IMG/VR virus record: IMGVR_UViG_3300019472_000019 | Source: a virus | Direction: 5' to 3' (one strand) | Length of the DNA: 30,854 nucleotides | Shown here: positions 6,604 to 30,854 of the stretch, in pieces | How positions within the stretch are numbered: position 1 is the stretch's first letter | How the letters are laid out: each line of letters opens with the position of its first letter | The notes under the pieces: model-generated | What the model was told of the DNA's origin: nothing | Seen by the model: only the letters and a program-made list of their open reading frames with translations | Database searches by the model: none | Position numbers and translations under genes: made by a program

Positions 6604-6635
6604 AAAACCGCCTCGAAAGCTCGGAGGCGGTTTTT
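6604..6635. terminator. Bidirectional intrinsic terminator between the convergent holin and RBP genes
   Basis: AAAACCGCCTCgaaagctcGAGGCGGTTTTT is a GC-rich stem flanked by an A-run and a T-run, so it can act on either strand. Confidence 0.8.
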
Positions 6636-6659: not shown

Positions 6660-7640
6660 TTAGGCCGCACCAATTGCGATCCAGCTGAAGTAATATGAAC
6701 CTTTCAACATAGCACCATCAAAGCGGCGACATCTCGCCGCAAATGATGAGTTTGTGATACTAACCGCCCCAATCGTCGCGCCAGCCCAAGACGGATTTGG
6801 CGTGTCCGTCCACGGATCGTTGGCGTTACCGTAGCCGTTGTATGTACAAATAACAGTCGGCACCGTTCCGCTCTTAAACATCTTCGGAAATGCAATGGCT
6901 GTCGTAGCTTCTATCGTATCAGTTGGGGCTATTACTCTTGCCCGACCGTACTGAAAAATGACAGACTCAACGGGTTGGTTAGTGCTATCTCGCTTTGCCT
7001 GAATGAAATCTGACCATTTTAAGTGTCGTGGTAGGACTATATCATTGCCAAGCGCGTCAGAGCCAATCACGCCGTTCTTGAACATTTCAGCCCTGTTAAT
7101 CCGTCCGTCAGCCAATGTGGCTGGATTGCGCCTATCAGTGATGACAGAGTCGAGAATTGTCGTCGTGCCAGCGTTTACGCGTATCTCAGCGATGACTTCA
7201 TATGGATTAGATGCACCAATCTTCGCCTTGATCTGAGATGGCGTAGGTGCACTTGGGTTGGTTGCTGGCGTGCCTGGAACGACAACGGCCTTTGTGCGAT
7301 TCTCGTTGTTGGCTACAGTCTGTGAGGCGGCCACGTTTGTGTCGATGTAGATCACCACCGCGTCAATTCGCGGATTAGCGCTGTTTGCCGTGGTAACGCT
7401 CGCCTGAACAGGCTGCGTGCTTAAATTACTCACCGGGAATGTCGCTGACATAGCGTCACGCACCAGTAAGTCATCAGGCACGCCATTCTCTCCGCCAATC
7501 AACACATTCATGCCGACAGGGCTGGCTTGACGCACTCTAAAGCCGCTAATCCACGAGCCGACAAAAGCATTGCCAAGTGCGTGGAATAGCGCGCTATCAG
7601 TGGTGCGACCACCGTTGCTGTTAGGAAAACCTAGTGCCAT
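6660..7640 (-). CDS. Tail fibre / receptor-binding protein, currently expressed isoform (constant N-terminal 200 aa + IVLPRHL junction + C-terminal cassette A)
   Basis: 326-aa ORF on the minus strand. The internal 21-bp recombination-site copy at 7021..7041 encodes residues 201-207, IVLPRHL. The C-terminal 119 aa is homologous to silent cassette B (FPKMFK vs FPKKFK; ...SWIAIGAA vs ...SWIAVGTV). Confidence 0.8.
   Translation of the reverse strand: MALGFPNSNGGRTTDSALFHALGNAFVGSWISGFRVRQASPVGMNVLIGGENGVPDDLLVRDAMSATFPVSNLSTQPVQASVTTANSANPRIDAVVIYIDTNVAASQTVANNENRTKAVVVPGTPATNPSAPTPSQIKAKIGASNPYEVIAEIRVNAGTTTILDSVITDRRNPATLADGRINRAEMFKNGVIGSDALGNDIVLPRHLKWSDFIQAKRDSTNQPVESVIFQYGRARVIAPTDTIEATTAIAFPKMFKSGTVPTVICTYNGYGNANDPWTDTPNPSWAGATIGAVSITNSSFAARCRRFDGAMLKGSYYFSWIAIGAA
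7021..7041 (-). repeat. Recombination site A (21-bp core TATAGTCCTACCACGACACTT, coding orientation on the minus strand)
   Basis: Exact 21-mer inside the RBP ORF, read as t ATA GTC CTA CCA CGA CAC TT = IVLPRH(L). Confidence 0.9.
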
Positions 7641-7642
7641 AG

Positions 7643-7924
7643 TTATTTTTCGTCAGCGCTTTCAGCCTCAGCCTCGGTAGTGTCGGCCGTCTCAGGCTCA
7701 GCATTATCATTGATATTTTCAACTTCTGGCTCGACAACCTCATCGGCAGACTCTACTGCTGGTGTCTCAGCCTCAGCCTCGGTAGTGTCGGCCGTGCCTT
7801 TGGCTGCCGAAATACTCACATACGGACCGCTGTGCGCATCGCCTTTGACGAAAATATAATAGCCGTCAACTGTTCGGCGAATCTCGCCGCCCTTATAATT
7901 CTGTACTTTCTCAGTATTTTCCAT
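7643..7924 (-). CDS. Small acidic protein (93 aa) co-transcribed upstream of the RBP gene
   Basis: Strong RBS (AGGAGGattcatATG). The stop lies 2 nt before the RBP start. The C-terminal half is a D/E/T/A-rich region containing the twice-repeated ADTTEAEAE. Confidence 0.7.
   Translation of the reverse strand: MENTEKVQNYKGGEIRRTVDGYYIFVKGDAHSGPYVSISAAKGTADTTEAEAETPAVESADEVVEPEVENINDNAEPETADTTEAEAESADEK
7662..7690 (-). repeat. 29-bp exact direct repeat, copy 1, inside the 93-aa gene
   Basis: TCAGCCTCAGCCTCGGTAGTGTCGGCCGT is identical at 7662..7690 and 7767..7795. It encodes ADTTEAEAE on the minus strand. Confidence 0.9.
7767..7795 (-). repeat. 29-bp exact direct repeat, copy 2, inside the 93-aa gene
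   Basis: Identical to 7662..7690, with a 105-bp period (in frame). Confidence 0.9.
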
Positions 7925-7984
7925 ATGAATCCTCCTGATTATAAATGTACAGATTAGGAGATATTGACGTTATTTGCCGTGGAA

Positions 7985-8013
7985 AATATAGCGGTATTCT
8001 TTGTATAGTCGAA
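7985..8013 (-). promoter_or_regulatory. Candidate promoter of the 93-aa/RBP operon, located inside the invertible segment
   Basis: The minus strand reads TTCGAC-17 nt-TATATT, about 60 nt upstream of the 93-aa gene start. It lies between that gene and site C. Confidence 0.35.
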
Positions 8014-8054
8014 TAATGATTCGTTTTAGCGCCAAGAGCATATTTATATTATAG

Positions 8055-8075
8055 TATAGTCCTACCACGACACTT
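8055..8075 (+). repeat. Recombination site C (same 21-bp core, inverted relative to A and B)
   Basis: Exact 21-mer on the + strand. The 23-mer GTATAGTCCTACCACGACACTTG (8054..8076) is shared with site B. Codon phase is the same, encoding IVLPRHL. Confidence 0.9.
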
Positions 8076-8424
8076 GTCTCCAGCAGCTCGCGGCGACCGC
8101 AGCACGTCAGAGGTCGACACCGGCATGAAGTGGATTGACGGCCGCACAATCTATCAGAAGACATTTTCAATGGGCGGCTTAAAGGCCGCTGGTAAGACAG
8201 TCGTACCTCACGGCATAAATAATCTTGACATGGTTATTAATATTCGCGGCATTGCAAAGGAATATAGTATTGGCGCGACAATTAACCTGCCACACGCCGC
8301 TGACCAGCAAGCTTATACGGTGACAGTTTACGCCGATAATAGCAATATCAATATCCAAACATACGCAGATCAATCCGGTTATAAGACCTCATTCGTGACA
8401 ATTCAATACGTCAAGAAGTCTTAA
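8056..8424 (+). other. Silent alternative RBP C-terminal cassette C (IVLPRHL + 115 aa), promoterless
   Basis: The frame is open from the site to the TAA at 8422..8424. It encodes IVLPRHLSPAARGDRSTSEVDTGMKWIDGRTIYQKTFSMGG...FVTIQYVKKS. There is no RBS or ATG at the junction. The sequence is unrelated to cassettes A and B. Confidence 0.8.
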
Positions 8425-8795
8425 ACAGTACCGACTGCGATCCAACTTATGCCGTGATGAGCGCCGCCAAAAATGCCTGAAGTTGAAGCTGTAATGGTCG
8501 TGCCTGTCTGATTGAATGATCCACACTCGATATTTGTACCAGCACCGATTTTCTGGTCAAAACTCGCTGCAGATGTTGGAGTGTTTCTCGTATATCCGAT
8601 TAAAGTAGGAATAACTGCGTAAACCTCCTTGAATTTCTTAGGAAATATAACCTGTACAGGTTGTTGTTTGCCTCCATTTCCGTAAAACGAGACCCAGCCA
8701 GACTGGATTATTAAATTACCAGAAATAGCTTGTGCTGAATTATTGGCACTGAAAGATAATAGGTCTGATGATTTCAAGTGTCGTGGTAGGACTAT
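8421..8795 (-). other. Silent alternative RBP C-terminal cassette B (IVLPRHL + 117 aa)
   Basis: The minus-strand frame is open from site B to the stop at 8421..8423. It encodes IVLPRHLKSSDLLSFSANNS...GAHHGISWIAVGTV. It lies tail-to-tail with cassette C, and the two stop codons overlap in TTAA at 8421..8424. Confidence 0.8.
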
Positions 8796-8796
8796 A
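8776..8796 (-). repeat. Recombination site B (same 21-bp core, same orientation as A)
   Basis: Exact 21-mer; the 23-mer copy spans 8775..8797. Codon phase is the same, encoding IVLPRHL. Confidence 0.9.
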
Positions 8797-8880
8797 CCGT
8801 GTAACATTGTGAGTTTTCCACAGGTCTAATAGATGTGGTGAAAAATATTGAAAAATCTCTGACTTTTTTCATAAAAAGTG

Positions 8881-8909
8881 TTGACATACGGCAACACGTT
8901 TGCTATACT
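8881..8909 (+). promoter_or_regulatory. Strong sigma70-type early promoter P1
   Basis: TTGACA-17 nt (ending TTTGC)-TATACT. It has an extended -10 TG and shares its architecture with P2 and P3. Confidence 0.75.
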
Positions 8910-8915
8910 TAAGAC

Positions 8916-9135
8916 ATGGTTGAGGGGCAACCAAGCAACAATTAACAATTCGGCGGCAAAAGAAAGTAGGTATAAAAATGTTCAAATCAACCTTTCAGTT
9001 TTTCAGAATTAAAATCACTGTAAAATTGGAGATTGTAAATAAACAAAAAATCAAAACTAGAAAATAAAACCTAGAAAACACAAACACTAAAAATAAACAG
9101 CCCCTCAACCGCCGCCGCCAAGAAAGGATAAGAAA
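8916..9135 (+). promoter_or_regulatory. About 220-nt A-rich, G-poor 5' leader of the first early gene, closed by an 11-bp long-range stem
   Basis: GGTTGAGGGGC (8918..8928) is the perfect reverse complement of GCCCCTCAACC (9100..9110). The enclosed ~170 nt is very A-rich (for example CAAAACTAGAAAATAAAACCTAGAAAACACAAACACTAAAAATAAACA). Confidence 0.45.
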
Positions 9136-9612: not shown

Positions 9613-9759
9613 GTGAAAAATAAGCACATACATATAAAAGTTTCAGAGAGTGATCACGAGATGATCGTCAAGCGTGCCGCCGAGTTGAATATGACAGTTA
9701 GCGAATACATACGACGATTGGTCGTTGCTGACGTTGCTGTTGCGGAATCTAATAAATAG
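9613..9759 (+). CDS. Ribbon-helix-helix (CopG/MobC-like) DNA-binding protein, 48 aa; not in the ORF track because it is under 60 aa
   Basis: GTG start preceded by GAAAGG. The translation VKNKHIHIKVSESDHEMIVKRAAELNMTVSEYIRRLVVADVAVAESNK shows the beta-strand (IHIKV) then helix-helix pattern typical of RHH proteins. An intrinsic terminator follows. Confidence 0.6.
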   Translation: MKNKHIHIKVSESDHEMIVKRAAELNMTVSEYIRRLVVADVAVAESNK

Positions 9760-10670: not shown

Positions 10671-11537
10671 ATGACGAAAAATACAATTATGCCAATCGAG
10701 CGAGCTTTTGACGAATATCTGGAGTACTGCGAGTTTACGCGCCGGATGAGTCGCCAAACATTGAGCGCTAAGCGGTGGGTGATGCGAGATTTTAGAACTA
10801 GCGTGCCAGCCAGCAGTCTGAGCGAAATTACGACGCAGCAGGTGAACGACTGGATTACAGAGCAGGCGCGGCGAGGTCTGAATAGCCGGACTATCAATAC
10901 GCGAATTTGCCATGTGGTGGCAATGTTCAGATATTTCAGAGATATGGGCGTGGAGATGCCTGAATTAAAGATTCGCCACATCGTTAAGCAGAAAGAGACC
11001 GAGCCGATTCGCCGCGTTTTCTACACGAGAGAGCAAATCGAGCAGGTGTTGGGATATTGCAATCAGATTCAGTGGTTGTTAGTTAAATTGTCGTTTGACT
11101 GTGGCTTACGAATCACTGAGCTAAGGAACTTAAGGCTAATGAATATCAGCGACAGGATGATTGTATTTACTGGCAAGGGTGCCAAACGGCGGGAGGTACA
11201 TATGAGTCGAGAAGCTCGCGAAAGATTGACGCAGTGGATCGTTAGTCAGCGTATTGATGATTATTTGTGGCAGAAGTTGAGCGGCACACTGCTCAGCGTC
11301 GAGGAGCTGAGGCATTTAATGCGTCAGCCGTTCTATCTGGCTGGATTTCGCAATTTTCACCCGCACGCTTTGCGGCACTCATTTGCTACAGACATTCAGC
11401 GAAATGGGGCGACGCTAATGGAATCACAGGAGATGCTCGGTCATTCAAACGCGGTAATTACGCAGCGATATTTGCATGGACTGGACGGCCAGATGGCAGC
11501 GTGCTTTGAAAGATTGAAATTTAGCGCAACATCATAA
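10671..11537 (+). CDS. Tyrosine site-specific recombinase, XerC/XerD-like (288 aa)
   Basis: The N-terminal SAM-like core-binding region begins ERAFDEYLEYCEFTRRMSRQTL. The full catalytic set is visible: R in GLRITELRNL, K in GKGAKRR, HxxR in HALRHSFAT, H in LGHSN and Y in QRYLH. There is no extra arm-binding N-terminal domain. Confidence 0.9.
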   Translation: MTKNTIMPIERAFDEYLEYCEFTRRMSRQTLSAKRWVMRDFRTSVPASSLSEITTQQVNDWITEQARRGLNSRTINTRICHVVAMFRYFRDMGVEMPELKIRHIVKQKETEPIRRVFYTREQIEQVLGYCNQIQWLLVKLSFDCGLRITELRNLRLMNISDRMIVFTGKGAKRREVHMSREARERLTQWIVSQRIDDYLWQKLSGTLLSVEELRHLMRQPFYLAGFRNFHPHALRHSFATDIQRNGATLMESQEMLGHSNAVITQRYLHGLDGQMAACFERLKFSATS

Positions 11538-11596: not shown

Positions 11597-11627
11597 AACG
11601 CAAGCGTATTGACAGAACGCTTGCGTT
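11597..11627. promoter_or_regulatory. 11-bp perfect inverted repeat bracketing the -35 of P3; operator, and/or terminator hairpin for the recombinase transcript
   Basis: AACGCAAGCGT (11597..11607) and ACGCTTGCGTT (11617..11627) flank the 9-nt loop ATTGACAGA, which contains most of TTGACA. TTTG follows the stem. Confidence 0.55.
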
Positions 11628-11637
11628 TTGCTATACT
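11609..11637 (+). promoter_or_regulatory. Strong sigma70-type promoter P3
   Basis: TTGACA-17 nt (ending TTTGC)-TATACT. The -10 region TTTGCTATACT and the following AAGACA match P1. Confidence 0.75.
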
Positions 11638-11643
11638 GAAGAC

Positions 11644-11851
11644 AGTTCAGATGAGCGGCGACTGTCGCCATCAACGGCCTTTAACATCACTGGAAAAAAC
11701 AAGATTCATGGTTGAGCGGTTTGCTCTATCATGTAATATTTTTCAGTGATATAATTATATCACGAAATAATCTTACATGATATAAACAGCGACTACCTCT
11801 GTTAGTCAAATCTATCGACCATGAATCGACTTCGCGTCGATTCTTTTTTTT
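11644..11851 (+). ncRNA. Candidate ~205-nt non-coding RNA, bounded by promoter P3 and an intrinsic terminator
   Basis: There is no RBS-preceded ORF. Track ORF 11549..11749 begins upstream of the promoter. Structural elements are the GGCGAC-t-GTCGCC hairpin (~11655..11667), a long imperfect hairpin CATGTAA...GTGATATAatTATATCAC...TTACATG (~11730..11779), and the terminator at 11823..11851. Confidence 0.5.
11823..11851 (+). terminator. Intrinsic terminator of the P3 transcript
   Basis: GAATCGAC-ttcgc-GTCGATTC forms an 8-bp stem, followed by an 8-T run (TTTTTTTT). Confidence 0.85.
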
Positions 11852-12538: not shown

Positions 12539-13306
12539 GTGGCGGACGCTTACTATAGCCGACCAGAGTGGTCATACTCATCAATGAAGCTGATTCTCGA
12601 TCACGGTATCGATTATGCAGTTGCCGCTAAACGTGGAGACCTGCCAGACCTAGACAGCAAAGCTATCGATCTTGGTCAGCTGGTCCATATGCTGGTGCTC
12701 GGCGGTGAAGATCAGTTCGCTATTAGCCCGTTTGAAAACTTCTACTCGAAAGAATCCAAGGCTTGGCGTGACGAGCAGAAAGCCGCTGGCAAACACATTA
12801 TCACTCTAGGCATGTTCAAGGCTGCTGATCAGATCTTGAAGAATATTGAGAATCACCCGCTGGCGAAGCAATACATTTTCGCCAAAGGCGCAACCTTTGA
12901 GCACGAAATGTATGCTCGAACGTCCGATGGCGTAGACATGAAAGGTAAGGCTGATGTACTGATTCACACTAATGAATCGGCCATGATAACCGACCTGAAA
13001 ACTACCGCAAAGTTCGACAAGTTTTTCAAAACCGCGCAGTCAATGCACTACGATTTGCAGTCAGCAGTTTACACGCTGGTGACGGCATCAAGCTTAGAGC
13101 TAGACCCGGCGCTAGTCAAGTTTGCCTACTGTGTGGTTGAGTCCGTCGCACCATACCGCGTGCAATTCATGATTGCCGGCATTGACTTTGTTGAAGCTGG
13201 CGAACGCAAGCTGCGTACGTGTGTTGACGAAATCATAAAGTTTGGCGACAGCGAGCCGAATTTCCTCATTGAAGAGGTGAGGGAGCTGGGCGATTGGAGC
13301 CTGTAA
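12539..13306 (+). CDS. PD-(D/E)XK family exonuclease (RecE/DUF3799/Cas4-like recombination nuclease)
   Basis: GTG start after GGGGAGG. The motifs are GKADVL...ITDLKT (D...DxK) followed by QSAVY (QxxxY). It lies just upstream of the Sak4-like ATPase and SSB. Confidence 0.7.
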   Translation: MADAYYSRPEWSYSSMKLILDHGIDYAVAAKRGDLPDLDSKAIDLGQLVHMLVLGGEDQFAISPFENFYSKESKAWRDEQKAAGKHIITLGMFKAADQILKNIENHPLAKQYIFAKGATFEHEMYARTSDGVDMKGKADVLIHTNESAMITDLKTTAKFDKFFKTAQSMHYDLQSAVYTLVTASSLELDPALVKFAYCVVESVAPYRVQFMIAGIDFVEAGERKLRTCVDEIIKFGDSEPNFLIEEVRELGDWSL

Positions 13307-13319
13307 AAGAAAGGAGAAT

Positions 13320-14147
13320 ATGAAAGTCTTTAATAGTTTAGATCCGACCGAAAAACCATCGATTCTGATGGTTGTGTATGGTGAGGGCGGCGTTGGTAAA
13401 ACAACGTTTGCAGCCACCGCACCACGACCGATTATCGCTGACTGCGAGAACGGTAGCAAATACTTCGGACTTCGCGGCATTGCAGCCGACGTAGCGCTGA
13501 TCGAAAAATGGGACGATATGCAGGAGTTTATGCAGATCGCACTCACTGACAACTACGATACGGTGATCATCGATCCAATTGGCGAGCTGATGGAGAAGTT
13601 GATTGCCTACATGCGAAATAGAGCCGACAGCAAATTGGTCCAGCGTGACGGCAACCCGACAATGGCGGGCTGGGGCTGGTTGAAATCAACCATGCGAACA
13701 TTCTTGAAAACCATGCGTGATAGCGGTAAGCATATCGTTATCGTGGCTCACGTTCAAGAGAAAGACGATGATGGCCGAGTTATTAAACGCCCAATGGTAG
13801 CCACAAGGCTATCTGAGGAGCTGGTCAATCTGGTGGACATCGTCGGCTACATGACAACGATCAATGATAGCGAAACCGGCGACACCAAGCGACTGATTAT
13901 CGTTGATCCAGCCAGCGACAAATACGTCGCAAAAGACCGTACTGGCCGACTGGGACGTTACATTGAACCAGACTTTACGAAGATCGTCGATGGCGTTCGG
14001 GGCGACGCTGAGTATGCGTGGATCACGGCAGCACCAGTATTGGCAAGCCGAGAGCAAATCGAAGCAGCCGCTAAGCCAACCATTCCAAGCTCACGCGTCG
14101 AAATGACGGACGCTCGCCTTGGTAAATCTGAAGCAAACAGGAAATAA
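13320..14147 (+). CDS. Sak4-like RecA-fold ATPase (AAA_24 family) recombination protein
   Basis: Walker A appears in ILMVVYGEGGVGKTTFAATAP and Walker B-like sequence in DTVIIDPIGEL. It sits in a phage recombination module. Confidence 0.75.
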   Translation: MKVFNSLDPTEKPSILMVVYGEGGVGKTTFAATAPRPIIADCENGSKYFGLRGIAADVALIEKWDDMQEFMQIALTDNYDTVIIDPIGELMEKLIAYMRNRADSKLVQRDGNPTMAGWGWLKSTMRTFLKTMRDSGKHIVIVAHVQEKDDDGRVIKRPMVATRLSEELVNLVDIVGYMTTINDSETGDTKRLIIVDPASDKYVAKDRTGRLGRYIEPDFTKIVDGVRGDAEYAWITAAPVLASREQIEAAAKPTIPSSRVEMTDARLGKSEANRK

Positions 14148-14156
14148 AGGAGGAAC

Positions 14157-14963
14157 ATGTCACAACTACAAGAATACGTCGACTCACAAGTCGCAACAAT
14201 ATCACCGTTCAAGGTGAAATCTCAAGAGCTTTTGGAGCAAGCCAAAGCCAAAGAGATAACTGACGACGCTACCGCCAAAGAAGCAGTGGCAATCCGCAAG
14301 CTGATCACCTCACACCGCACCGAAGTCAAGAACGCACGACTGGCGATCACTCGCAACTTTGACAGCGTCAAGTCACAATTCATCGACGCTGAAAAGGACG
14401 TTCTGGCGCCAGCTGAAGAGGCACTGGAGAATATCAGTCAAAAGATTCTAGCCTATCAGGAAGAGCAGGAGCGACTGGCAAAAGAGGAAGCTGTACGCGT
14501 TGACGCTATCTGTGCTAAGTTCGCTACCAACACCAAATCGCTACGTAGCCAGAAAGCCTGCGATGAAAAAGGCGCTGAATTGAAGCAAATATTCGCTGAG
14601 CTATCTGAAGCTGACCAAAACCACGCTGAAATCAAGCTGGCATTCACTAAAGCCATCAACGAACTGTTGACGCGTAAAGACGAATTGACAACCGCCGAGC
14701 GCGACGAAGCTGAAGCCGCTAAATTAGCCGCACAGCGTAAACGCGAACAGGAAATCGCTGAAGCCGAGGCAGCCAAAGCTGCTAAAGCACAACAGCCAGC
14801 CGTCAAATCTGGCATTAAAACCAAGACGGTGTTCACGGTCACCAATCCCGAATTAGTGCCACGCTACTTGTGCGAGCCAAGCGACAAACTAATCCGCGAA
14901 GCCATCGCTAATGGATTACGTGAAATCCCAGGCGTTGAAATCCGCGAGGAAAAGAGTTTCTAA
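14157..14963 (+). CDS. DUF1351-like coiled-coil protein of phage recombination modules
   Basis: 268 aa, helical and E/K/A-rich, with the N-terminal pattern ATISPFKVKSQELLEQAKAKEITDDATAKEAVAIRKLI. It lies between the Sak4-like gene and SSB, as is typical for this family. Confidence 0.5.
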   Translation: MSQLQEYVDSQVATISPFKVKSQELLEQAKAKEITDDATAKEAVAIRKLITSHRTEVKNARLAITRNFDSVKSQFIDAEKDVLAPAEEALENISQKILAYQEEQERLAKEEAVRVDAICAKFATNTKSLRSQKACDEKGAELKQIFAELSEADQNHAEIKLAFTKAINELLTRKDELTTAERDEAEAAKLAAQRKREQEIAEAEAAKAAKAQQPAVKSGIKTKTVFTVTNPELVPRYLCEPSDKLIREAIANGLREIPGVEIREEKSF

Positions 14964-14964
14964 T

Positions 14965-15420
14965 ATGGCAGCAATTAACATAGTGACCCTAATTGGCCGT
15001 GTTGTCCGCGACATTGAAGTCAAATCGACAAATAGCGGTAAGTCCGTGGCCTCATTCGCACTAGCAGTTGACGGTTACGGCAAAGATGCCGACGCAAGCT
15101 TTATCGATTGCGTTGCTTGGAATAAAGCGGCCGAACTACTGGCGGAATATGCACCGAAAGGCAAACAGATTGGCATCACTGGCCGCCTGCAGACACGAAT
15201 CTGGGAGAAAGATGATATCAAACGTAAAGCGACTGAAGTCATCATCGATCAGTTCCAGCTTTTGAGCGACGCAAAGGGCGGTAGTAATACCGCACCGGCG
15301 ACTGAGAGATATGCCGATGAGGACGCCAAATCAACAAACCCAACGACTAATCAAGCGGCTAAGTCAGTAGAGGACGTTGACCTCGACGCGCCGATTGATT
15401 TGAGCGAAATACCATTTTAA
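14965..15420 (+). CDS. ssb: Single-stranded DNA-binding protein
   Basis: From the ATG at 14965, the OB fold reads MAAINIVTLIGRVVRDIEVKSTNSGKSVASFALAV...CVAWNKAAE...ITGRLQTRIWEKDD, and the acidic tail is DLSEIPF. Confidence 0.9.
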   Translation: MAAINIVTLIGRVVRDIEVKSTNSGKSVASFALAVDGYGKDADASFIDCVAWNKAAELLAEYAPKGKQIGITGRLQTRIWEKDDIKRKATEVIIDQFQLLSDAKGGSNTAPATERYADEDAKSTNPTTNQAAKSVEDVDLDAPIDLSEIPF

Positions 15421-15832: not shown

Positions 15833-16072
15833 ATGTCCCTGATGAATTGCACATTCACGGTTCGCTGGAGCGACGAGAAAAACGAACCGCATGCGAAAAC
15901 CTACGCTACCGAAGATGATGCTAAGAGAGCTAAAAAATGGCTGCTGGAACACGGCGTTCGGAGCGTAGACATCGCGGTCAAGATAAATAATAAGCCAGCC
16001 GGTAGTTTGGAAGACGGCGACAAGCCGTCTGAGGCTGGGGCTGAGCAGAAAGGATTTTGGTGGGAGAAGTGA
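15833..16072 (+). CDS. Hypothetical protein (79 aa)
   Basis: GGAGG RBS. The ORF is compact and tightly packed against its neighbours. Confidence 0.55.
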   Translation: MSLMNCTFTVRWSDEKNEPHAKTYATEDDAKRAKKWLLEHGVRSVDIAVKINNKPAGSLEDGDKPSEAGAEQKGFWWEK

Positions 16073-17043
16073 TTGACGACAATCAATTCGACATATTCCA
16101 GTGGGCGAACTGGGCTGATGCTAATAAGAAAGATCTGCTCATCGACCTGTTCATTTTCAATAAAAACTTTACGCCATACGTGTTACCACTGAAAACATCG
16201 ACCATAGAAGATCAAATGCGAACACTGTTTCTCTACGACATGATCAATTTCGTGGAAACCGGAGCAGCAGTTGGACTGTCTGTCAGAGACTACGCGACAA
16301 ACGATCAGACGGAAAATGTGTTGCTATACAGCGAGCTTGAAAGCATCCAGTGCGCCGACACACTCATCTATCTTCTTGGCGATGACAATATTGCTGAGTT
16401 CAGCGAGAAAGAACACGAGATGAAGCGTATGCACGGTATTGTAGCGCGGTTTAGCGACCCAAAAGATCCAGACAAGACCTTTTACATCACCAAACAGCTG
16501 CAGCGATCACAGATGTTGAGTGGAAGCCTCACGTGGCAAGTTAATGGTAGCGACTTTGGCGAGCTTGATGCCGACGCAGCGTTCAAGATACCAGCTGATA
16601 ACCAAGTGCTAATCGCTGGCGGAAAAGTGTTTGCGTTTAATCCAAAGAAGTTTGTCAATTTGTTCAAGCAAGACCCATCAAGCGACGCTGCAACAAAGCA
16701 AGTCATTGATCTTTTGACGAAAAAGTTTGCGCTGAACCTGCCTGAGGGATTGTCATTCGCAGAGTTGGCTGACCGCAACAAATCACTGACTACTATGTTG
16801 ATGAAGTTGGACGTTGAACATTTGCCTTGTAAGGAGAGAGTTGTCGATTATGCCGAGGAAATGGATTTGGCGCTTATGTCAGACAATCACGACGGCATTA
16901 TTATCATGGATAATCGTGACGCAATGATGTTTGTCAATATCCTGGCCGACAACTATGTCGACAGCAACTTGACTGATTCACGCTACCTCGTGACTGGCAA
17001 GAAGCGGATTGATAGCGATTCGCAGATGAACATGAATATATAA
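16057..17043 (+). CDS. Hypothetical early protein (~325 aa), function unknown
   Basis: Long ORF. The start is uncertain: TTG 16057, GTG 16060 (AAAGGA RBS), or GTG 16069 (GTGA overlap). I could verify no catalytic motif by eye. Confidence 0.6.
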   Translation: MVGEVIDDNQFDIFQWANWADANKKDLLIDLFIFNKNFTPYVLPLKTSTIEDQMRTLFLYDMINFVETGAAVGLSVRDYATNDQTENVLLYSELESIQCADTLIYLLGDDNIAEFSEKEHEMKRMHGIVARFSDPKDPDKTFYITKQLQRSQMLSGSLTWQVNGSDFGELDADAAFKIPADNQVLIAGGKVFAFNPKKFVNLFKQDPSSDAATKQVIDLLTKKFALNLPEGLSFAELADRNKSLTTMLMKLDVEHLPCKERVVDYAEEMDLALMSDNHDGIIIMDNRDAMMFVNILADNYVDSNLTDSRYLVTGKKRIDSDSQMNMNI

Positions 17044-24491: not shown

Positions 24492-26390
24492 ATGAAGTTC
24501 TGGAAGTGGAGCAATTCCGTTTCATCGAATAATCAAGAGCTTATACTTGACGGGCCTATCGCGAGCGATACCTGGTGGGGCGACGAAGTCACACCTGACC
24601 TATTTCGCGAAGAACTCAAGCAGCATGCGGGCGATTTGACAGTTGTCATTAACAGCCCCGGCGGCGACGTGTTTGCAGGCTTGGCGATTTATAACGCACT
24701 TGTGAATCATAACGGAAATGTCACTGTCAGAGTTGATGGTTTAGCGGCGTCGATTGCATCAGTGATTGCGATGGCAGGCGACAAGATTATCATGTCGCCA
24801 GGCTCAATGATCATGATTCACCGCCCGTCCGTTTATGCGGCTGGTACGGTGGACGACATGGAGAAAGCCAAAGATGTGTTGCTGAAGATCGAGGAGGGAA
24901 TCACACCTATCTACGCCAGGCGAACAGGGCTGAGTGATGAAAAGATCACTGAGCTGCTGGAAGCGGAAACGTGGATGCTTGCCGATAAGGCTGTCGAGCT
25001 TGGTTTTGCCGATGAGGTGTCTGATGCACCAGAGAAGCAAAAGCAAGATGAGGGCGTACAGAATGTGATGGGTATGAACTTTGCATTCAGTATGTCGGCA
25101 GTCAAGCAGGCAGACGCCAAGCCAATGCAGAGCCTGGTTGAACAGATCAAGGCAAAAGCAGAGGCTGAAGCAGCTAAGGCGGCGGAGCCGACCGAAGACG
25201 CAACTGAACCTGAAACGAAAACTGACGAACCAGCGGCACCGGAAGCCGCGCCAGAGGCAGAGCCTACTGACGAAGCTGAGCAATCAGAACCGGAAGAATC
25301 AACTGATAACAATCCTGAGGAGGATACGGAAATGGATCCGAAAGATATTGCAAAGATGCAAATTAAAGAACCAGCTGATCCAGCAGCTGTCGACAAAGGT
25401 ACTGTCGTAAATTACTTGGACACACCAAAGGCATTAGAAGATTTTGCTGACGTGCTGGTAGCACAGGCAGGAGCAGGTGCGGCAGCCGTTCGTGAAGCTT
25501 GGATGGACAAGCTTGAGGCTAACGGTGTACAGATGGCTGTCACTGGTGCTGACAAATTATTCCCAGCCCCAGTTGTTGAGGCAGTTGAGAGTGCATTTAA
25601 GGCTGGCGGACCAATTTGGAACCTAGTCGATAAAACTGGGCTTGACGCTTACAACACCGCTTGGGACACCAACACTGATGGTGCGATGGGTCACCAGGCA
25701 GGCAAAGACAAGAAAGAGGCTACGATTGCTATCGAAAACCGCATACTTGAGGGTCAGTACATCTACAAGTACCTCACCCTTGACAAAGAAACTATCCGCA
25801 AGAACAAGAGCACTGGCTCACTGTTGCGTTATGTATTGCAGGAGTTGCCAAAGCGAATTATCGCAAGTATTGAACGTGCGATCGTTATCGGTGACGGCCT
25901 AGCAAGCAGCAGCGACGACAAGATCAAGTCGTTTATATCTGTTAAAACCGACGCTACGGCTAATAATGTGTTTGCAAAAACCTATACGCCAAAAACAGAA
26001 GAAAGTCGCCGTACTGCTATCTTGAATGCACGCGACCTAATCGAGGCTGAGGGCGACGTTTACATCATCGCAAAGCGCGGCTACCTCACCGCTTTGAAAG
26101 ATGAGCGAGGTACTGACAAGCATATGCTGTACACTCCAGGCGTTAACATTTTGGAAGACTTGGAGCTTGCTGGCAAATTTACGCCACAATGGTTCAATGA
26201 TACCAACGACGCCGACAACGATGCGTACTTGATTGTGTTGAACAACTACAAGGTAGTTGGTGATCAGTCAATCGAGAGCTACACCAACTTTGCATTGAAG
26301 CAGAATAAGCACGAATACTTGCAAGAAATCTTCGCAGGTGGCGGCTTGAGCGGCATCGCAGCAGCAGTGGCTATTAAACACGTAGCCTAA
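24492..26390 (+). CDS. Prohead protease (ClpP/S14-like), acidic scaffold-like linker and HK97-fold major capsid protein fused in one ORF (632 aa)
   Basis: The protease motifs are INSPGGDVFAGLAIYNAL, GLAASIASVIAMAGD and MIHRPS. The linker is AKAEAEAAKAAEPTEDATEPETKTDEPAAPEAAPEAEPTDEAEQSEPEE. The C-terminal ~330 aa is capsid-like, ending IFAGGGLSGIAAAVAIKHVA. Confidence 0.8.
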   Translation: MKFWKWSNSVSSNNQELILDGPIASDTWWGDEVTPDLFREELKQHAGDLTVVINSPGGDVFAGLAIYNALVNHNGNVTVRVDGLAASIASVIAMAGDKIIMSPGSMIMIHRPSVYAAGTVDDMEKAKDVLLKIEEGITPIYARRTGLSDEKITELLEAETWMLADKAVELGFADEVSDAPEKQKQDEGVQNVMGMNFAFSMSAVKQADAKPMQSLVEQIKAKAEAEAAKAAEPTEDATEPETKTDEPAAPEAAPEAEPTDEAEQSEPEESTDNNPEEDTEMDPKDIAKMQIKEPADPAAVDKGTVVNYLDTPKALEDFADVLVAQAGAGAAAVREAWMDKLEANGVQMAVTGADKLFPAPVVEAVESAFKAGGPIWNLVDKTGLDAYNTAWDTNTDGAMGHQAGKDKKEATIAIENRILEGQYIYKYLTLDKETIRKNKSTGSLLRYVLQELPKRIIASIERAIVIGDGLASSSDDKIKSFISVKTDATANNVFAKTYTPKTEESRRTAILNARDLIEAEGDVYIIAKRGYLTALKDERGTDKHMLYTPGVNILEDLELAGKFTPQWFNDTNDADNDAYLIVLNNYKVVGDQSIESYTNFALKQNKHEYLQEIFAGGGLSGIAAAVAIKHVA

Positions 26391-29809: not shown

Positions 29810-30854
29810 ATGAACCAAGGCGAGATTATTATCACATATCGTGTTGACTCGAGTGGTGCAATCACCGCTATGAGCAATGTCCAAAAAAAGATGTACGAGA
29901 GCGAGAGAAATCTCAACTCGACTCAATCAAAATATGGCAAGTTTTTTGACAGGCTAAATCAGGGCTTTGGTGGCGTTGCTAATACGATAAAAAAATTTGG
30001 TATCGTCGCTGCCGGTGTTATCGGTGGCGGTACATTTGGTGCAAAACAGTTTATCGACCTCGCCAGTGGCTTGCAAACAACACAAGCGCAGATGGCGTCA
30101 CTCACTGGATCGACCGAAGCCGCGAACAGGGTGTTTGGACAGCTGTACAACCAGGTGCTCGGAAAGCCGATCGCCTTTCCCGATGCCTCAAAGGCAGCAT
30201 CTACCTTGCTAGGGTATGGGCGTACGGCACAACAGGTCATACCAGACATGGATACTCTAGGTAGGCTATCTATCGTTTCTGGTGCAAATTTGCAGAATTT
30301 AGCACTGGTTTTTGGACAGGTTACGAGCCGTGGGGCGCTGTTTGGACAAGATGCTTTACAGCTGATCAACAATAATATTCCGTTGACTACCATCTTGGCC
30401 AAGAAGTTCGGTATTTCTATGGAAGAGGCTGCTGGAAGAATCAATGGTGGCAAGGTGAGCGCCGAGGAGTTCACGGCGGCCATGGCAGAATACGCACAGA
30501 GCCTAGATATCAGCAAATTCTCAAACACATTCCAAAACAGAATGATTAGCTTGCAGGGCTCGATTCGGTCACTTGGACTAGAGATTATTGGCGTACGAGT
30601 GGATTCTGAAAAGGGGCTAATAGTTGACCAAAATGGACTATTTGCCAAGTTTAGTGATGGCGTCACAAAGCTTACTGCTTTTTTGAAAGAGAATAAGCAA
30701 ACGATTGTCGGTTTTGCCAATTTCATCATAGATAATGCTGTGCCAGCCATTGCAGCGCTAGGGTCGGCGTTTGTAGCAATGAAAGTTGGTCAGTTTGCGA
30801 CAACGATGGCAAAAAGCGCCATCGGTTTGCGAGGTTTCATCGGTGCCTTGAAGA
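29810..30854 (+). CDS. Tape measure protein, N-terminal part. It runs off the window end and continues at base 128 after the repeat.
   Basis: ATG at 29810 opens a frame with no stop to the window end, so it is absent from the ORF track. My translation is MNQGEIIITYRVDSSG...LGYGRTAQQVIPDMDTLGRLSIVSGANLQNLALVFGQVTSRGALFGQDALQLINNNIPL..., which is typical tape-measure-domain sequence. 30728-29810 = 918 nt, so it is in frame with ORF 13..1218. The joined gene is 918+1218 = 2136 nt, or 711 aa. Confidence 0.85.
   Translation, partial: MNQGEIIITYRVDSSGAITAMSNVQKKMYESERNLNSTQSKYGKFFDRLNQGFGGVANTIKKFGIVAAGVIGGGTFGAKQFIDLASGLQTTQAQMASLTGSTEAANRVFGQLYNQVLGKPIAFPDASKAASTLLGYGRTAQQVIPDMDTLGRLSIVSGANLQNLALVFGQVTSRGALFGQDALQLINNNIPLTTILAKKFGISMEEAAGRINGGKVSAEEFTAAMAEYAQSLDISKFSNTFQNRMISLQGSIRSLGLEIIGVRVDSEKGLIVDQNGLFAKFSDGVTKLTAFLKENKQTIVGFANFIIDNAVPAIAALGSAFVAMKVGQFATTMAKSAIGLRGFIGALK
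30728..30854. repeat. Right copy of the exact 127-bp terminal direct repeat
   Basis: Identical to 1..127. Unique genome length is 30854-127 = 30727 bp. Confidence 0.95.

Follow-up and report, generated by a model that had tools for sequence, protein, structure and literature searches.

In-frame exchange of the C-terminus of a phage fibre by DNA inversion, which alters host range, is well known from the switches Mu Gin/G, P1 Cin/C, p15B Min and e14 Pin. These are driven by serine invertases, which make a 2-bp crossover and use an enhancer with Fis. In the loci vsa/HvsR of M. pulmonis, vpma/Xer1 of M. agalactiae and sap of C. fetus, inversion puts a single promoter beside alternative silent genes. 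The Rin shufflon, described by Mavrich et al. in 2018 in prophages of Bifidobacterium breve and Bifidobacterium longum, is a shufflon of a phage receptor-binding protein (RBP) attributed to a predicted tyrosine invertase (PMC6109161), and it was also found in Eggerthella lenta prophages (PMC8778435). Rin Rc resembles the receptor-binding protein of lactococcal phage 1358, and Rin Rv resembles the TP901-1 head (PMC6109161).

The DNA analysed here (the window, 30,854 nt) is the complete circular genome, of about 31 kb, of a temperate siphophage of oral Candidatus Saccharibacteria (TM7; Patescibacteria/CPR). No record with detectable protein similarity was found in the INPHARED phage collection. 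Based on the results below, the window very likely carries a programmed site-specific DNA-inversion switch (shufflon) that changes the C-terminal head of a putative RBP.

The order of the locus is fixed cassette A, site S1, segment 1 (seg1), site S2, segment 2 (seg2), site S3 and a fixed outer flank. The sites are copies of the 21-mer TATAGTCCTACCACGACACTT, which occurs exactly three times in the window. S1 (7021..7041, minus strand), given with its left flank by TGATATAGTCCTACCACGA, lies inside the expressed gene, at the junction of its constant part (Rc) with cassette A. S2 (8055..8075, plus strand) separates the promoter end of seg1 from cassette C and is inverted to S1 and S3, and S3 (8776..8796, minus strand) separates the fixed outer flank from cassette B and is direct to S1. 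In other words, the A/C and C/B sites are inverted and the A/B sites are direct. In 100 shuffles of the sequence, no match to the 21-mer was obtained even at up to three mismatches. All three copies stand in one codon phase (T ATA GTC CTA CCA CGA CAC TT) and encode IVLPRHL. An earlier note, made from the sequence alone, had described these positions, orientations and phase, which were reproduced exactly; its length of 21 nt holds for the three-copy repeat, whereas the B/C pair actually shares 23 nt (8054–8076 and 8775–8797).

Seg1 (7042..8054) is an invertible expression unit, flipped by S1 × S2, that comprises the promoter region, a 93-aa gene and Rc. Rc (7042..7640, minus strand) is the constant N-terminal part, 200 codons long, of the putative RBP, which has 326 aa. 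The 93-aa gene (7643..7924, minus strand), whose stop lies 2 nt ahead of the Rc ATG, inverts together with Rc and stands beside it in all isomers; its product has an acidic repeat tail and gave no family match in profile searches. The P end of seg1 (7925..8054, minus strand) is non-coding and contains a Shine-Dalgarno AGGAGG; at 8012..7985, its minus strand weakly resembles a sigma-70 promoter. It would carry the promoter of the 93-aa gene and Rc, a role presumed because the unit stays intact in both orientations.

Cassette A (6660..7020, minus strand, 119 aa) is fixed, lies outside the invertible DNA and is now fused to Rc. Seg2 (8076..8775), flipped by S2 × S3, is an invertible pair of tail-to-tail cassettes, both silent here: C (8076..8424, plus strand, 115 aa), with a head unrelated to A and B, and B (8421..8775, minus strand, 117 aa), a weak homologue of A. 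Cassettes B and C end in overlapping stop codons (TTAA, 8421–8424). The junction of cassette C is devoid of an ATG or Shine-Dalgarno sequence, and its frame is open from 8020; cassette B has an ATG in the outer flank, giving a 128-aa ORF (8421..8807). The cassette lengths, the stop overlap and the bare junction of C had been reported before and were reproduced. The relatedness of A and B, earlier described as diverged homologues, was retained, but it is marginal at the sequence level (27% identity, E = 0.003), and A and C proved unrelated in the sequence comparison, as had been stated. Cassette B showed a weak Pfam match to the Gp53-like_C tail-fibre family.

We suggest the following scheme for the switch. 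Inversion between S1 and S2 would flip the expression unit, which would read either left into cassette A or right into the facing seg2 cassette, and inversion between S2 and S3 would flip seg2, selecting which cassette faces the expression unit. The outcome would be four isomers and three isoforms (326, 322 and 324 aa), joined in frame at IVLPRHL, which is part of the linker that connects the shoulder domain to the head. Within the site, its first 15 nt (TATAGTCCTACCACG) contain the point of strand exchange. The candidate catalyst is the 288-aa Xer-like integrase encoded beside attP, the sole recombinase of the phage. It may recognise the inner arms TGRTA and TAYCA(CGA), common to attP and the inversion sites, and the 6-bp spacers (TAATTA in attP versus the asymmetric TAGTCC in the shufflon) would separate the two site classes. 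Judging from their folds, the different heads, with lectin-like A and its weak sequence homologue B on one side and the unrelated C on the other, may bind different cell-surface receptors, resulting in a change of host range.

The present locus is like Rin in that it belongs to a temperate siphophage of a human-associated host of the Gram-positive type (PMC6109161). In both systems, inversion at a short asymmetric intragenic repeat joins a constant RBP N-terminus to one of several heads of about 100 aa, an XerD-like tyrosine-family recombinase without an arm-binding domain is implicated, and the evidence is a comparison of prophage arrangements. However, in Rin a dedicated rin invertase flanks the array and a separate lambda-type integrase is present, whereas here a single recombinase lies beside attP, 1.9 kb away from the array. 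The 11-bp rix site TTCCCTAACCC has no match here at up to one mismatch. Moreover, the Rin constant part is fixed and the cassettes move, while here the cassettes flank a flipping unit of Rc, the upstream gene and the promoter region; the hosts also belong to different phyla, here Patescibacteria/CPR. In a comparison made with models of our adhesin, the top PDB Foldseek matches included neither the phage 1358 RBP nor the TP901-1 head, and matches in BFVD bear the name 'Receptor Binding Protein'.

With the serine switches, the locus shares the in-frame C-terminal swap by inversion, and Min also gives several isoforms via multiple inversions. In those switches the invertible DNA contains neither the constant part nor the promoter, whereas here it includes Rc and the presumed promoter region, and Pfam and PHROG scans revealed no serine recombinase. 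The R64/IncI shufflon (Rci, sfx, pilV tips) resembles the locus in its tyrosine recombinase and exchanged C-terminal adhesin tips, in an asymmetric site conserved in the spacer and in just one of the arms, and in yielding inversions only, with no deletions between direct sites. It differs in its dedicated enzyme Rci, which carries a C-terminal extension, in the immobile constant part of pilV, in a product that is a plasmid pilus adhesin and not a phage protein, and in its sfx site (GTGCCAATCCGGT...), which has no match here at up to two mismatches. In the surface-antigen systems, too, inversion brings silent genes next to one promoter, to which a constant 5′ coding part may be attached, and the C. 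fetus sap promoter sits on a segment that, like seg1, flips between cassettes lying to its left and right in opposite orientations. Those are cellular antigenic-variation loci rather than phage virion genes; the C. fetus system is RecA-dependent and uses long homology, and the Mycoplasma systems have dedicated Xer-like invertases. The use of a tyrosine instead of a serine recombinase, put forward earlier as a difference from known systems, is not new, as Rin had already been attributed to a tyrosine invertase (PMC6109161, PMC8778435). A phage RBP shufflon with a tyrosine recombinase is known since 2018, and the novelty of the present switch is below the earlier claim. It is new in the host phylum, in having an expression unit that flips between flanking cassettes and in operating without a dedicated invertase, its only recombinase lying beside attP as an integrase.

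To assess the locus in other genomes, relatives were found via the site itself (53 viral, 5 genome and 52 metagenome stretches), and 246 junctions were classified in about 112 related loci. Rc was joined in frame to five cassette types (A in 16 cases, B in 7, C in 32, D in 19 and E in 4). All complete loci (53/53) had the site pattern +-+ or -+-. Cassette A was partnered only by Rc or P, and the outer flank only by seg2 cassettes, which matches the predicted topology exactly. The deletion junction of the outer flank with A was found in 0 of 246 junctions, although loss of the RBP gene, if selected against, would give the same zero. The window's own set {A;B,C} and the set {A;C,D} were each represented by all four isomers, and the set {A;D,E} by three of the four. 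The earlier model of three cassettes, an invertible promoter and 5′ segment and four isomers is therefore supported by related contigs, in which all the predicted alternative arrangements are present.

In blastn comparisons with the window, the relatives gave inverted alignments with breakpoints on the 21-mers, exactly at 7021/8075 for seg1, confirming the predicted end points. Junctions of P with A and of Rc with X were present in many loci, and the inversion of seg2 against the window was visible in the loci L017 and L035. The loci L033 and L055 are different isomers in spite of 99.9% identity in seg1. The expected isoforms of 326, 322 and 324 aa were found as called proteins (Rc-A 97.9%, Rc-C 99.1% and Rc-B 98.1% identity). 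In addition, the ORF at the junction of the outer flank with C, assembled from window sequence, has an exact copy in a public collection, where its neighbour is a 324-aa gene or a 325-aa H_lectin gene; the window's own ORF joining the outer flank to B is accompanied by a 322-aa gene or a 323/326-aa gene. Identical cassette proteins were found in all four arrangements. At the level of sequence, this comparison of assemblies demonstrates the inversions together with their end points, as well as the gene fusions.

The 15-nt site core was invariant over more than 240 junctions, some of them non-coding and some with an unrelated constant module, whereas divergence in the flanks was 5–25%; this indicates that the site itself is under selection. 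In all relatives the silent cassettes were open and in frame, so that the decay of cassettes or site considered earlier was not observed. Site variants at positions 19–20 track cassette D, whatever its left flank, and a G variant at position 16 remains with cassette C (L031 vs. L043). The second, unrelated constant module occurs in the same phage backbone with the same core and TGATA at the junction, and the same integrase (95% identical) is encoded downstream of it.

The recombinase (10671..11537, plus strand) is encoded 1.9 kb from S3, with three ORFs between. It gave matches to Pfam Phage_integrase (E = 8.1e-28) and Phage_int_SAM_1 (E = 1.3e-7) and to a PHROG integrase (E = 1.4e-42), and its translation holds GLRITELR, HALRHSF, LGHS and QRYLH. 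The R...HxxR...H/W...Y signature of the catalytic domain and the core-binding, N-terminal SAM-like domain place this 288-aa, Xer-like protein without an arm-binding domain, by its sequence, in the tyrosine (lambda-Int/Xer) recombinase superfamily. An assignment as an XerC, XerD, XerA or integron-integrase equivalog was rejected, as the best score (XerC) was 127.6 bits against a cut-off of 335 and every NCBIfam family was far below its cut-off; no invertase family matched above the NCBIfam cut-off either. A Pfam/PHROG scan of nearly all ORFs of at least 100 aa gave no second recombinase, including serine enzymes (Resolvase domain), in agreement with the earlier reading of a sole Xer-like tyrosine recombinase and no serine invertase.

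About 210 nt from the recombinase lies attP (11727..11782), a palindrome with 28-nt arms and the core TGATA-TAATTA-TATCA (11747–11762), at which prophage/host junctions break. In a 396-kb Saccharibacteria contig, prophage homology stops at window position ~11762, 225 nt beyond the recombinase stop codon, and bacterial genes follow; more prophage junctions adjoin pheT. By its adjacency to attP and by these junctions, the protein is the phage integrase. Across 50 related loci, its identity is no lower than 91.7%.

Of 19 positions, 15 agree between the Rc junction site TGATATAGTCCTACCACGA and the attP core TGATATAATTATATCACGA (11747–11765), and all but one of the four mismatches fall within the central 6 bp; this 19-nt window was picked post hoc with both sequences already in view. 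At up to five mismatches, attP was the sole other match in the genome, against a null expectation of 0.045 matches per genome at up to four mismatches. In an unbiased ungapped scan, attP scored no better than some 6–8 chance-level matches, so the support for site similarity is positional (roughly p = 0.01). Both arms are common to the attP core and the inversion site, which differ for the most part in the central 6 bp; this may point to a dual-use integrase. We give even chances to the proposal that this 288-aa integrase, the only recombinase of the phage, catalyses the inversion, and slightly less than even to the fuller one, in which a single armless integrase would perform both attB integration and shufflon flips, the two reactions being separated only by the 6-bp spacers. 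If true, host-range switching would be coupled to the lysogeny machinery; no precedent for a dual-use integrase/invertase was found in the literature searched.

The inversions may also be programmed but catalysed in trans by a recombinase of the Saccharibacteria host (a chromosomal Xer-type enzyme or a dedicated invertase), with the phage enzyme only integrating and excising. This explanation, which we consider rather unlikely, would suit a recombinase that adjoins attP as ordinary integrases do, the left arms of S2 and S3, which fit the proposed attP-like arm poorly, and the unexceptional rank of attP in the unbiased scan. Likewise, an invertase acting in trans was proposed for a bifidophage inversion locus without a flanking recombinase (PMC6109161), and a distant lineage with a different site has no recombinase in ~21 kb of visible DNA. 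However, the same 15-nt core and the same integrase occur together in every locus where both are visible, even beside the second constant module, the Rc junction site agrees with the attP core in both arms and deviates from it mostly in the spacer, and no host candidate enzyme was identified. A very improbable source of the isomers is homologous recombination at the 21–23-bp repeats by host RecA or by the module at 12539–15420, which encodes an AAA_24 (Sak4-type) ATPase, a PD-(D/E)XK nuclease, an exonuclease-like protein and an SSB. Phage annealing proteins are able to use short homologies. Nevertheless, the core stays constant between diverged flanks and exchange is limited to it, no deletion junction ever came from the 33 nt over which A and B are 91% identical around the direct pair S1/S3, and the arm-spacer-arm layout of the site is that of the attP core.

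It is also highly improbable that no active switching occurs and that the isomers are fixed lineages, arising from rare old rearrangements or co-infection exchange, or assembly artefacts at inverted repeats. In Logan contigs from two runs with exactly this protein (one contig of 30.65 kb), S1 was crossed without a branch, which indicates that switching is not frequent in those two samples, and most relatives are 5–15% diverged from each other. On the other hand, the isomer state is scattered over three cassette sets and two constant modules, nearly identical seg1 copies (L033/L055) and identical cassette proteins occur in different arrangements, and the silent cassettes are everywhere open. 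As for artefacts, assembler k-mers exceed the 21–23-nt length of the repeat, and the topology is found again in IMG/VR, ENA, Logan and MAG assemblies, which were produced with different software. A programmed site-specific switch remains our preferred reading.

The Rc part has 3925 homologues, in which residues 1–180 are paired with many different heads. The AlphaFold model of Rc-C (pLDDT 91) matched a 'Receptor Binding Protein' and actinophage minor tail proteins in BFVD, and the cassette C head occurs in proteins annotated as receptor-binding proteins. In the Rc-A model, PDB Foldseek related the head to SLL-2 (3wmp), Helix pomatia agglutinin (2ce6, 2ccv) and discoidins with probability 1.0, and also to the R1 pyocin fibre; the H-type lectin fold is present in pyocin and phage fibre tips as well. 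The window protein itself had no Pfam match, while relatives 82–85% identical overall carry H_lectin (PF09458). Based on the model and these relatives, cassette A is assigned as a predicted H-type-lectin-like head. Structure prediction, envisaged earlier for all three heads, covered A and C.

The fold and the annotation of homologues suggest a receptor-binding role. A distant lineage has the homologous gene placed between those for a head-tail adaptor and the tail tube, likewise an atypical position, so the protein could be a neck or side fibre instead of a tail-tip receptor-binding protein. That the unrelated heads let the phage alternate between the cell types of the Saccharibacteria–Actinomyces epibiont pair is a long shot. 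In the window, the putative RBP gene is atypically placed after the lysis genes, outside the tail operon. A bidirectional terminator-like hairpin (6604..6635; −17.9 kcal/mol, z = −4.0), flanked by runs of A and T, separates the end of cassette A from the holin-like gene.

The 21-mer TATAGTCCTACCACGACACTT occurs exactly three times in the window, at 7021-7041 (minus strand, S1), 8055-8075 (plus strand, S2) and 8776-8796 (minus strand, S3), and no match to it was found in 100 shuffles with up to three mismatches permitted. The arms of the S2/S3 repeat reach 23 nt. As the earlier note had described, the three copies lie in a common codon phase and encode IVLPRHL, the first being located within a 326-aa minus-strand ORF (6660..7640), in which the constant N-terminal 200 codons of the putative receptor-binding protein (Rc) are fused to head cassette A. 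S2 opens a 115-aa frame ending at 8424 (cassette C) with neither an ATG nor a ribosome-binding site. S3 opens a 117-aa frame ending at 8421 (cassette B), which corresponds, with an ATG from the outer flank, to the called 128-aa ORF 8421..8807. At 8421-8424, the stop codons of B and C overlap within the sequence TTAA. Homology between A and B, proposed to be diverged homologues, is weak (27% identity, E = 0.003), and C, regarded as unrelated to the other heads, is indeed unrelated to A. All the direct sequence observations of that note are present in the window.

The sites delimit two adjacent segments, namely seg1 (7042..8054), which includes a non-coding end with a presumed promoter (P), a 93-aa gene and Rc, and seg2 (8076..8775), which includes cassettes B and C. 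The predicted junction sequences are ...GGCAATGATATAGTCCTACCACGACACTTGTCTCCAGC for Rc joined to C and ...CACTTGAAATCATCAGAC for Rc joined to B. The co-inverted 93-aa gene contains a perfect 29-nt direct repeat (7662-7690 and 7767-7795) coding for a repeated acidic motif, TADTTEAEAE, and its product varies among relatives (93, 95 or 100 aa). Several Logan contigs end in this repeat region, about 50 nt upstream of the Rc start codon. A copy of the outer flank and site was also suspected within the P region, and the alignment gave no support for it.

To assess the distribution of this organization, three collections were scanned for the site, giving 53 stretches from viral, 5 from genome and 52 from metagenome data, and more loci were obtained via exact-protein look-ups. 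Each site was classed by its left flank (Rc end, P end of seg1 or fixed outer flank beyond S3) and its right flank (cassettes A-E). As a result, 246 junctions were counted, the collections not being de-duplicated against each other. Among them, Rc was joined to A 16 times, to B 7 times, to C 32 times, to D 19 times and to E 4 times, so that there are at least five head types, more than the window genome alone shows. Cassette A was joined to Rc or P only, the outer flank was joined only to seg2 cassettes, and the junction of the outer flank with A, the product expected of an S1 x S3 deletion, was found in 0 of the 246. The orientation of the sites alternated in all 53 complete loci. Taken together, these partners, the alternating orientation and the lack of the deletion product correspond exactly to the arrangement that two neighbouring invertible segments would give.

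All four isomers of the window's own cassette set, {A;B,C}, were seen. With the cassettes that face Rc, P and the outer flank named in that order, the window and L101 have the arrangement (A,C,B), L017 has (A,B,C), and ten and four loci have (C,A,B) and (B,A,C), respectively. Four of the four isomers were likewise seen for {A;C,D} and three of the four for {A;D,E}. In blastn comparisons of relatives with the window, the alignments break and reverse exactly at 7021/8075 and 8055/8796. In the pair L033 and L055, seg1 is 99.9% identical, yet both segments differ in orientation. The three isoforms predicted from the window have full-length matches among called proteins, namely Rc-A (326 aa) at 97.9%, Rc-C (322 aa) at 99.1%, in a cluster of 182 members, and Rc-B (324 aa) at 98.1%. 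Furthermore, the ORF across the junction of the outer flank with C, built from the window sequence, has an exact copy in the public collection, where its neighbour is either a 324-aa gene or an H_lectin gene of 325 aa, and the window's ORF across the junction of the outer flank with B adjoins a 322-aa gene or a 323/326-aa gene in public data. The silent cassettes keep an intact frame, open throughout. Based on the isomers, the breakpoints, the called isoforms and the intact silent cassettes, the four DNA isomers and three protein isoforms deduced in the earlier note are correct, and the locus is a real and well-populated natural phase-variation system.

The related loci also indicate where the crossover occurs. 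The first 15 nt of the site (TATAGTCCTACCACG) are essentially invariant, the single exception being L033 with a changed first position, and the variable positions are 16, 19 and 20. The variants ACATCT, ACATAT and ACACCT go with cassette D, whatever the left flank, and a G16 variant keeps to cassette C in the related pair L031/L043, where the left flanks of C differ. Since the right-end variants travel with cassettes D and C, strand exchange is placed in the left 15 nt.

As for the rate of switching, S1 was passed without a branch in Logan contigs (one of 30.65 kb) from two runs carrying exactly this protein, so switching is not rapid in those two populations. As a counterpoint, the isomers are scattered over close relatives. 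No two isomers of an identical strain in one sample were found among the places listed for exact-protein matches, and neither the Rc-C nor the Rc-B chimera of the window strain has an exact match in the public collection. Many contigs among L001-L114 end about 20-300 nt from a site (e.g., L057, L049, L023, L070, L072, L083, L093, L108 and L114). Fragmentation of assemblies is concentrated at the shufflon, and mixed isomers or mixed strains could contribute to it. Within-sample switching was considered as the source of these contig ends: their offsets misfit a clean branch-at-site model and are explained equally by low coverage or strain mixtures, and therefore they were not counted as evidence of switching.

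An exhaustive profile-free search gave 3925 homologues of the protein, in which the first 180 residues and the C-type head (residues 211-320) are combined independently of one another; the C-type head also occurs repeated within larger proteins. The AlphaFold model of Rc-C (pLDDT 91) comprises two beta-rich domains, and the linker between them holds IVLPRHL. Outside its own family, it matches BFVD entries named 'Receptor Binding Protein' as well as minor tail proteins of actinophages, with E values as low as 1e-13, and in the PDB it weakly matches R-type pyocin fibres and fibre heads. The Rc-A model has a pLDDT of 79 overall, with blocks of about 77-94 in the head (residues 227-325), which matches H-type lectins (SLL-2, Helix pomatia agglutinin and discoidins), the R1 pyocin fibre tip and AP22 gp53; the Pfam H_lectin domain is present in close relatives of Rc-A. 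A PDB sequence search with both isoforms and the family profile gave nothing meaningful, and the INPHARED phage collection contained no match to the locus (DNA search) or to the 326-aa protein. Carbohydrate-binding adhesin heads carried on a common shoulder are compatible with a receptor-binding protein, whose position in the virion is presumed. The annotation of an 804-kb contig from Candidatus Nanosynbacter sp. BB002 includes a 325-aa homologue (P0030, 71% identity), so this named strain, which could be used experimentally, may harbour a related prophage.

A second constant module, unrelated to Rc, was found at the same kind of site. It comprises about 50 N-terminal residues ending in ...GTNLSDD|IVLPR, and its 15-nt core is identical. 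The three-site layout and the outer flank are as in the window, the phage backbone is common to both modules, and, where visible, so is the integrase (95% identical); the upstream gene differs from that of the Rc module. This module likewise occurs in several isomers (L095, L113, L089 and L145-L150). A distant lineage (L115-L119, IMG/VR contigs of about 27 kb) encodes a homologous protein (47% identity). The switch in this lineage is simple: a module of two cassettes flips between two copies of another 21-bp repeat, AATATAGATTTTACGACTATG, which encodes NIDFTTM; in L119 the other cassette is fused. The homologous gene is flanked here by the genes for a Gp19-type head-tail adaptor and the tail tube. 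Given this position and the location of the window gene outside the tail operon, a neck or side fibre is possible. No recombinase was visible in the examined DNA of the distant lineage when one was sought for covariation of enzyme with site.

The window ends carry an exact 127-nt direct repeat (1-127 and 30728-30854), so the window is a circular assembly that comprises 30,727 unique bases; the tape-measure gene spans its ends. Exactly this phage is present in the data sets SRR5637664, SRR5637667 and JGI 3300028510. It is a siphophage, with head genes (terminase, portal, protease-capsid fusion), tail genes (tape measure, Dit, Tal-like protein), lysis genes (GH25-LysM lysin, holin-like gene), recombination-module genes (PD-(D/E)XK nuclease, AAA_24 (Sak4-type) ATPase, SSB) and genes for YopX and VRR-NUC proteins. 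The shufflon locus follows the lysis genes and a strong bidirectional hairpin, and after it come three small ORFs and a 288-aa tyrosine recombinase (ORF 10671..11537, plus strand). All five genome-collection matches to the site were Candidatus Saccharibacteria MAGs. On the 396-kb contig of one MAG, homology to the window ends at about 11762, which lies 225 nt beyond the stop codon of the recombinase and in the middle of a palindrome whose arms measure 28 nt (attP, 11727-11782, 190 nt 3′ of the integrase gene), where host rpiB, rpe and transketolase genes come next. Other prophage copies adjoin pheT on contigs of 89-100 kb. These prophage/host junctions indicate that the phage is temperate and that the recombinase is in the integrase position. 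The prophage sites (L055 5900-6000; L125, L138; contigs of 89-396 kb), with rpiB as the neighbour in one MAG and pheT in others, reflect either more than one attB context or differing host synteny.

The Xer-like 288-aa enzyme has catalytic and SAM-like core-binding domains without an arm-binding domain; its catalytic Tyr is part of a QRYLH motif. It scores under the cut-off of every curated family, and its matches in INPHARED are below 30% identity. The Pfam and PHROGs scans, which together took in nearly all ORFs of 100 aa or longer, revealed no second recombinase. The attP core, TGATA-TAATTA-TATCA(CGA), is a perfect dyad, and the Rc junction site is TGATA-TAGTCC-TACCA(CGA); they agree at 15 of 19 positions, and the central 6 bp hold three of the four mismatches. 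Apart from attP, no other place in the genome lies within five mismatches of the Rc junction 19-mer (null expectation of 0.045 per genome at up to four mismatches), the 19-nt comparison window having been picked after the match was seen. In an unbiased ungapped scan, attP was among some 6-8 chance-level matches and was no outlier by raw score, so the similarity is suggestive only; its support comes mainly from the exact coincidence of one such match with the attP dyad (p of roughly 0.01). TGATA also stands at the junction of both unrelated constant modules. The left arms of S2 (TAGTA) and S3 (CGGTA or CAGTA) match the attP arm poorly, resembling in this the one-armed sfx sites of R64 Rci, a likeness that proves nothing.

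This pattern is as would be expected of one tyrosine recombinase acting on shared arms. We suggest that a single enzyme would bind the arms common to attP and the inversion sites, that distinct spacers would stop cross-reaction between integration and inversion, and that the asymmetric spacer TAGTCC would set the polarity of the inversion sites. Such a dual-use phage integrase has a chance approaching even. Catalysis in trans by a host enzyme is a less probable but serious alternative, and homologous recombination via the phage Sak4-type module or RecA appears very improbable. A recombination module at 12539-15420, beginning about 800 nt past attP, encodes a PD-(D/E)XK nuclease (DUF3799), the AAA_24 (Sak4-type) ATPase, an exonuclease-like protein and SSB. 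If the integrase is indeed the invertase, a minimal tyrosine recombinase would serve two separated site classes via spacer identity, which would bear on recombinase specificity and offer a compact engineering part.

Mu Gin, P1 Cin, p15B Min and the R64 shufflon work by the same logic, but their defining features are lacking here: Gin, Cin and Min are serine recombinases, none of which was found among the scanned ORFs of the window, and the sfx repeat of R64 is absent from the window, as is the rix repeat of the Rin shufflon. The nearest known counterpart is the Rin shufflon found in prophages of Bifidobacterium, in which a predicted tyrosine invertase drives receptor-binding-protein shuffling (PMC6109161) and which has been reported in Eggerthella lenta prophages too (PMC8778435). 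Consequently, the novelty previously claimed for a tyrosine recombinase in place of a serine invertase fails. Unlike in all these systems, the invertible segment here consists of the constant part, its upstream gene and the promoter region, and seg1 flips between a fixed cassette and a two-cassette module. Inversion of a promoter or expression unit is known from bacterial antigen loci, such as Mycoplasma vsa and vpma and the Campylobacter fetus sap promoter, and no description of this layout for phage fibres was found in the literature searched. Further differences are the lack of a dedicated invertase, the single recombinase being an integrase by position with an attP resembling the inversion site, and the host, a CPR/Patescibacteria bacterium.

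To our knowledge, information on the phages that infect Saccharibacteria and other CPR bacteria comes almost solely from metagenomes, with host recognition unexplored, and no report of inversion systems in Saccharibacteria phages was found in the literature searched. The locus provides a concrete, widespread phase-variable adhesin system in CPR phages, represented by more than 100 public contigs with five head types and two constant scaffolds, and it adds to the known phage shufflons an architecture whose flipping part is the expression unit itself, with cassettes on both sides. Experiments are feasible, given the related prophages in Saccharibacteria genomes and the homologue recorded in BB002. 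It should be noted that metagenomic host-range or strain analyses of these oral phages should count the four isomers as one genome.

Some other features of the genome are worth recording. A 632-aa ORF (24492-26390) combines an N-terminal head maturation protease and a C-terminal major-head-protein-like region in one frame. A 328-aa ORF (16057-17043) weakly matches the Kiwa defence protein KwaB, below the cut-off, and a 48-aa ribbon-helix-helix-like ORF (9613-9759) between the shufflon and the integrase gene has weak matches to MobA, MbpA and RelB. A 39-nt element is present in two copies, 72% identical (8878-8916 and 11606-11644), each with a near-consensus promoter, TTGACA-17-TATACT. The second copy sits between the integrase gene and attP and is directed across attP; in a prophage it would transcribe outward into host genes such as rpiB or pheT.
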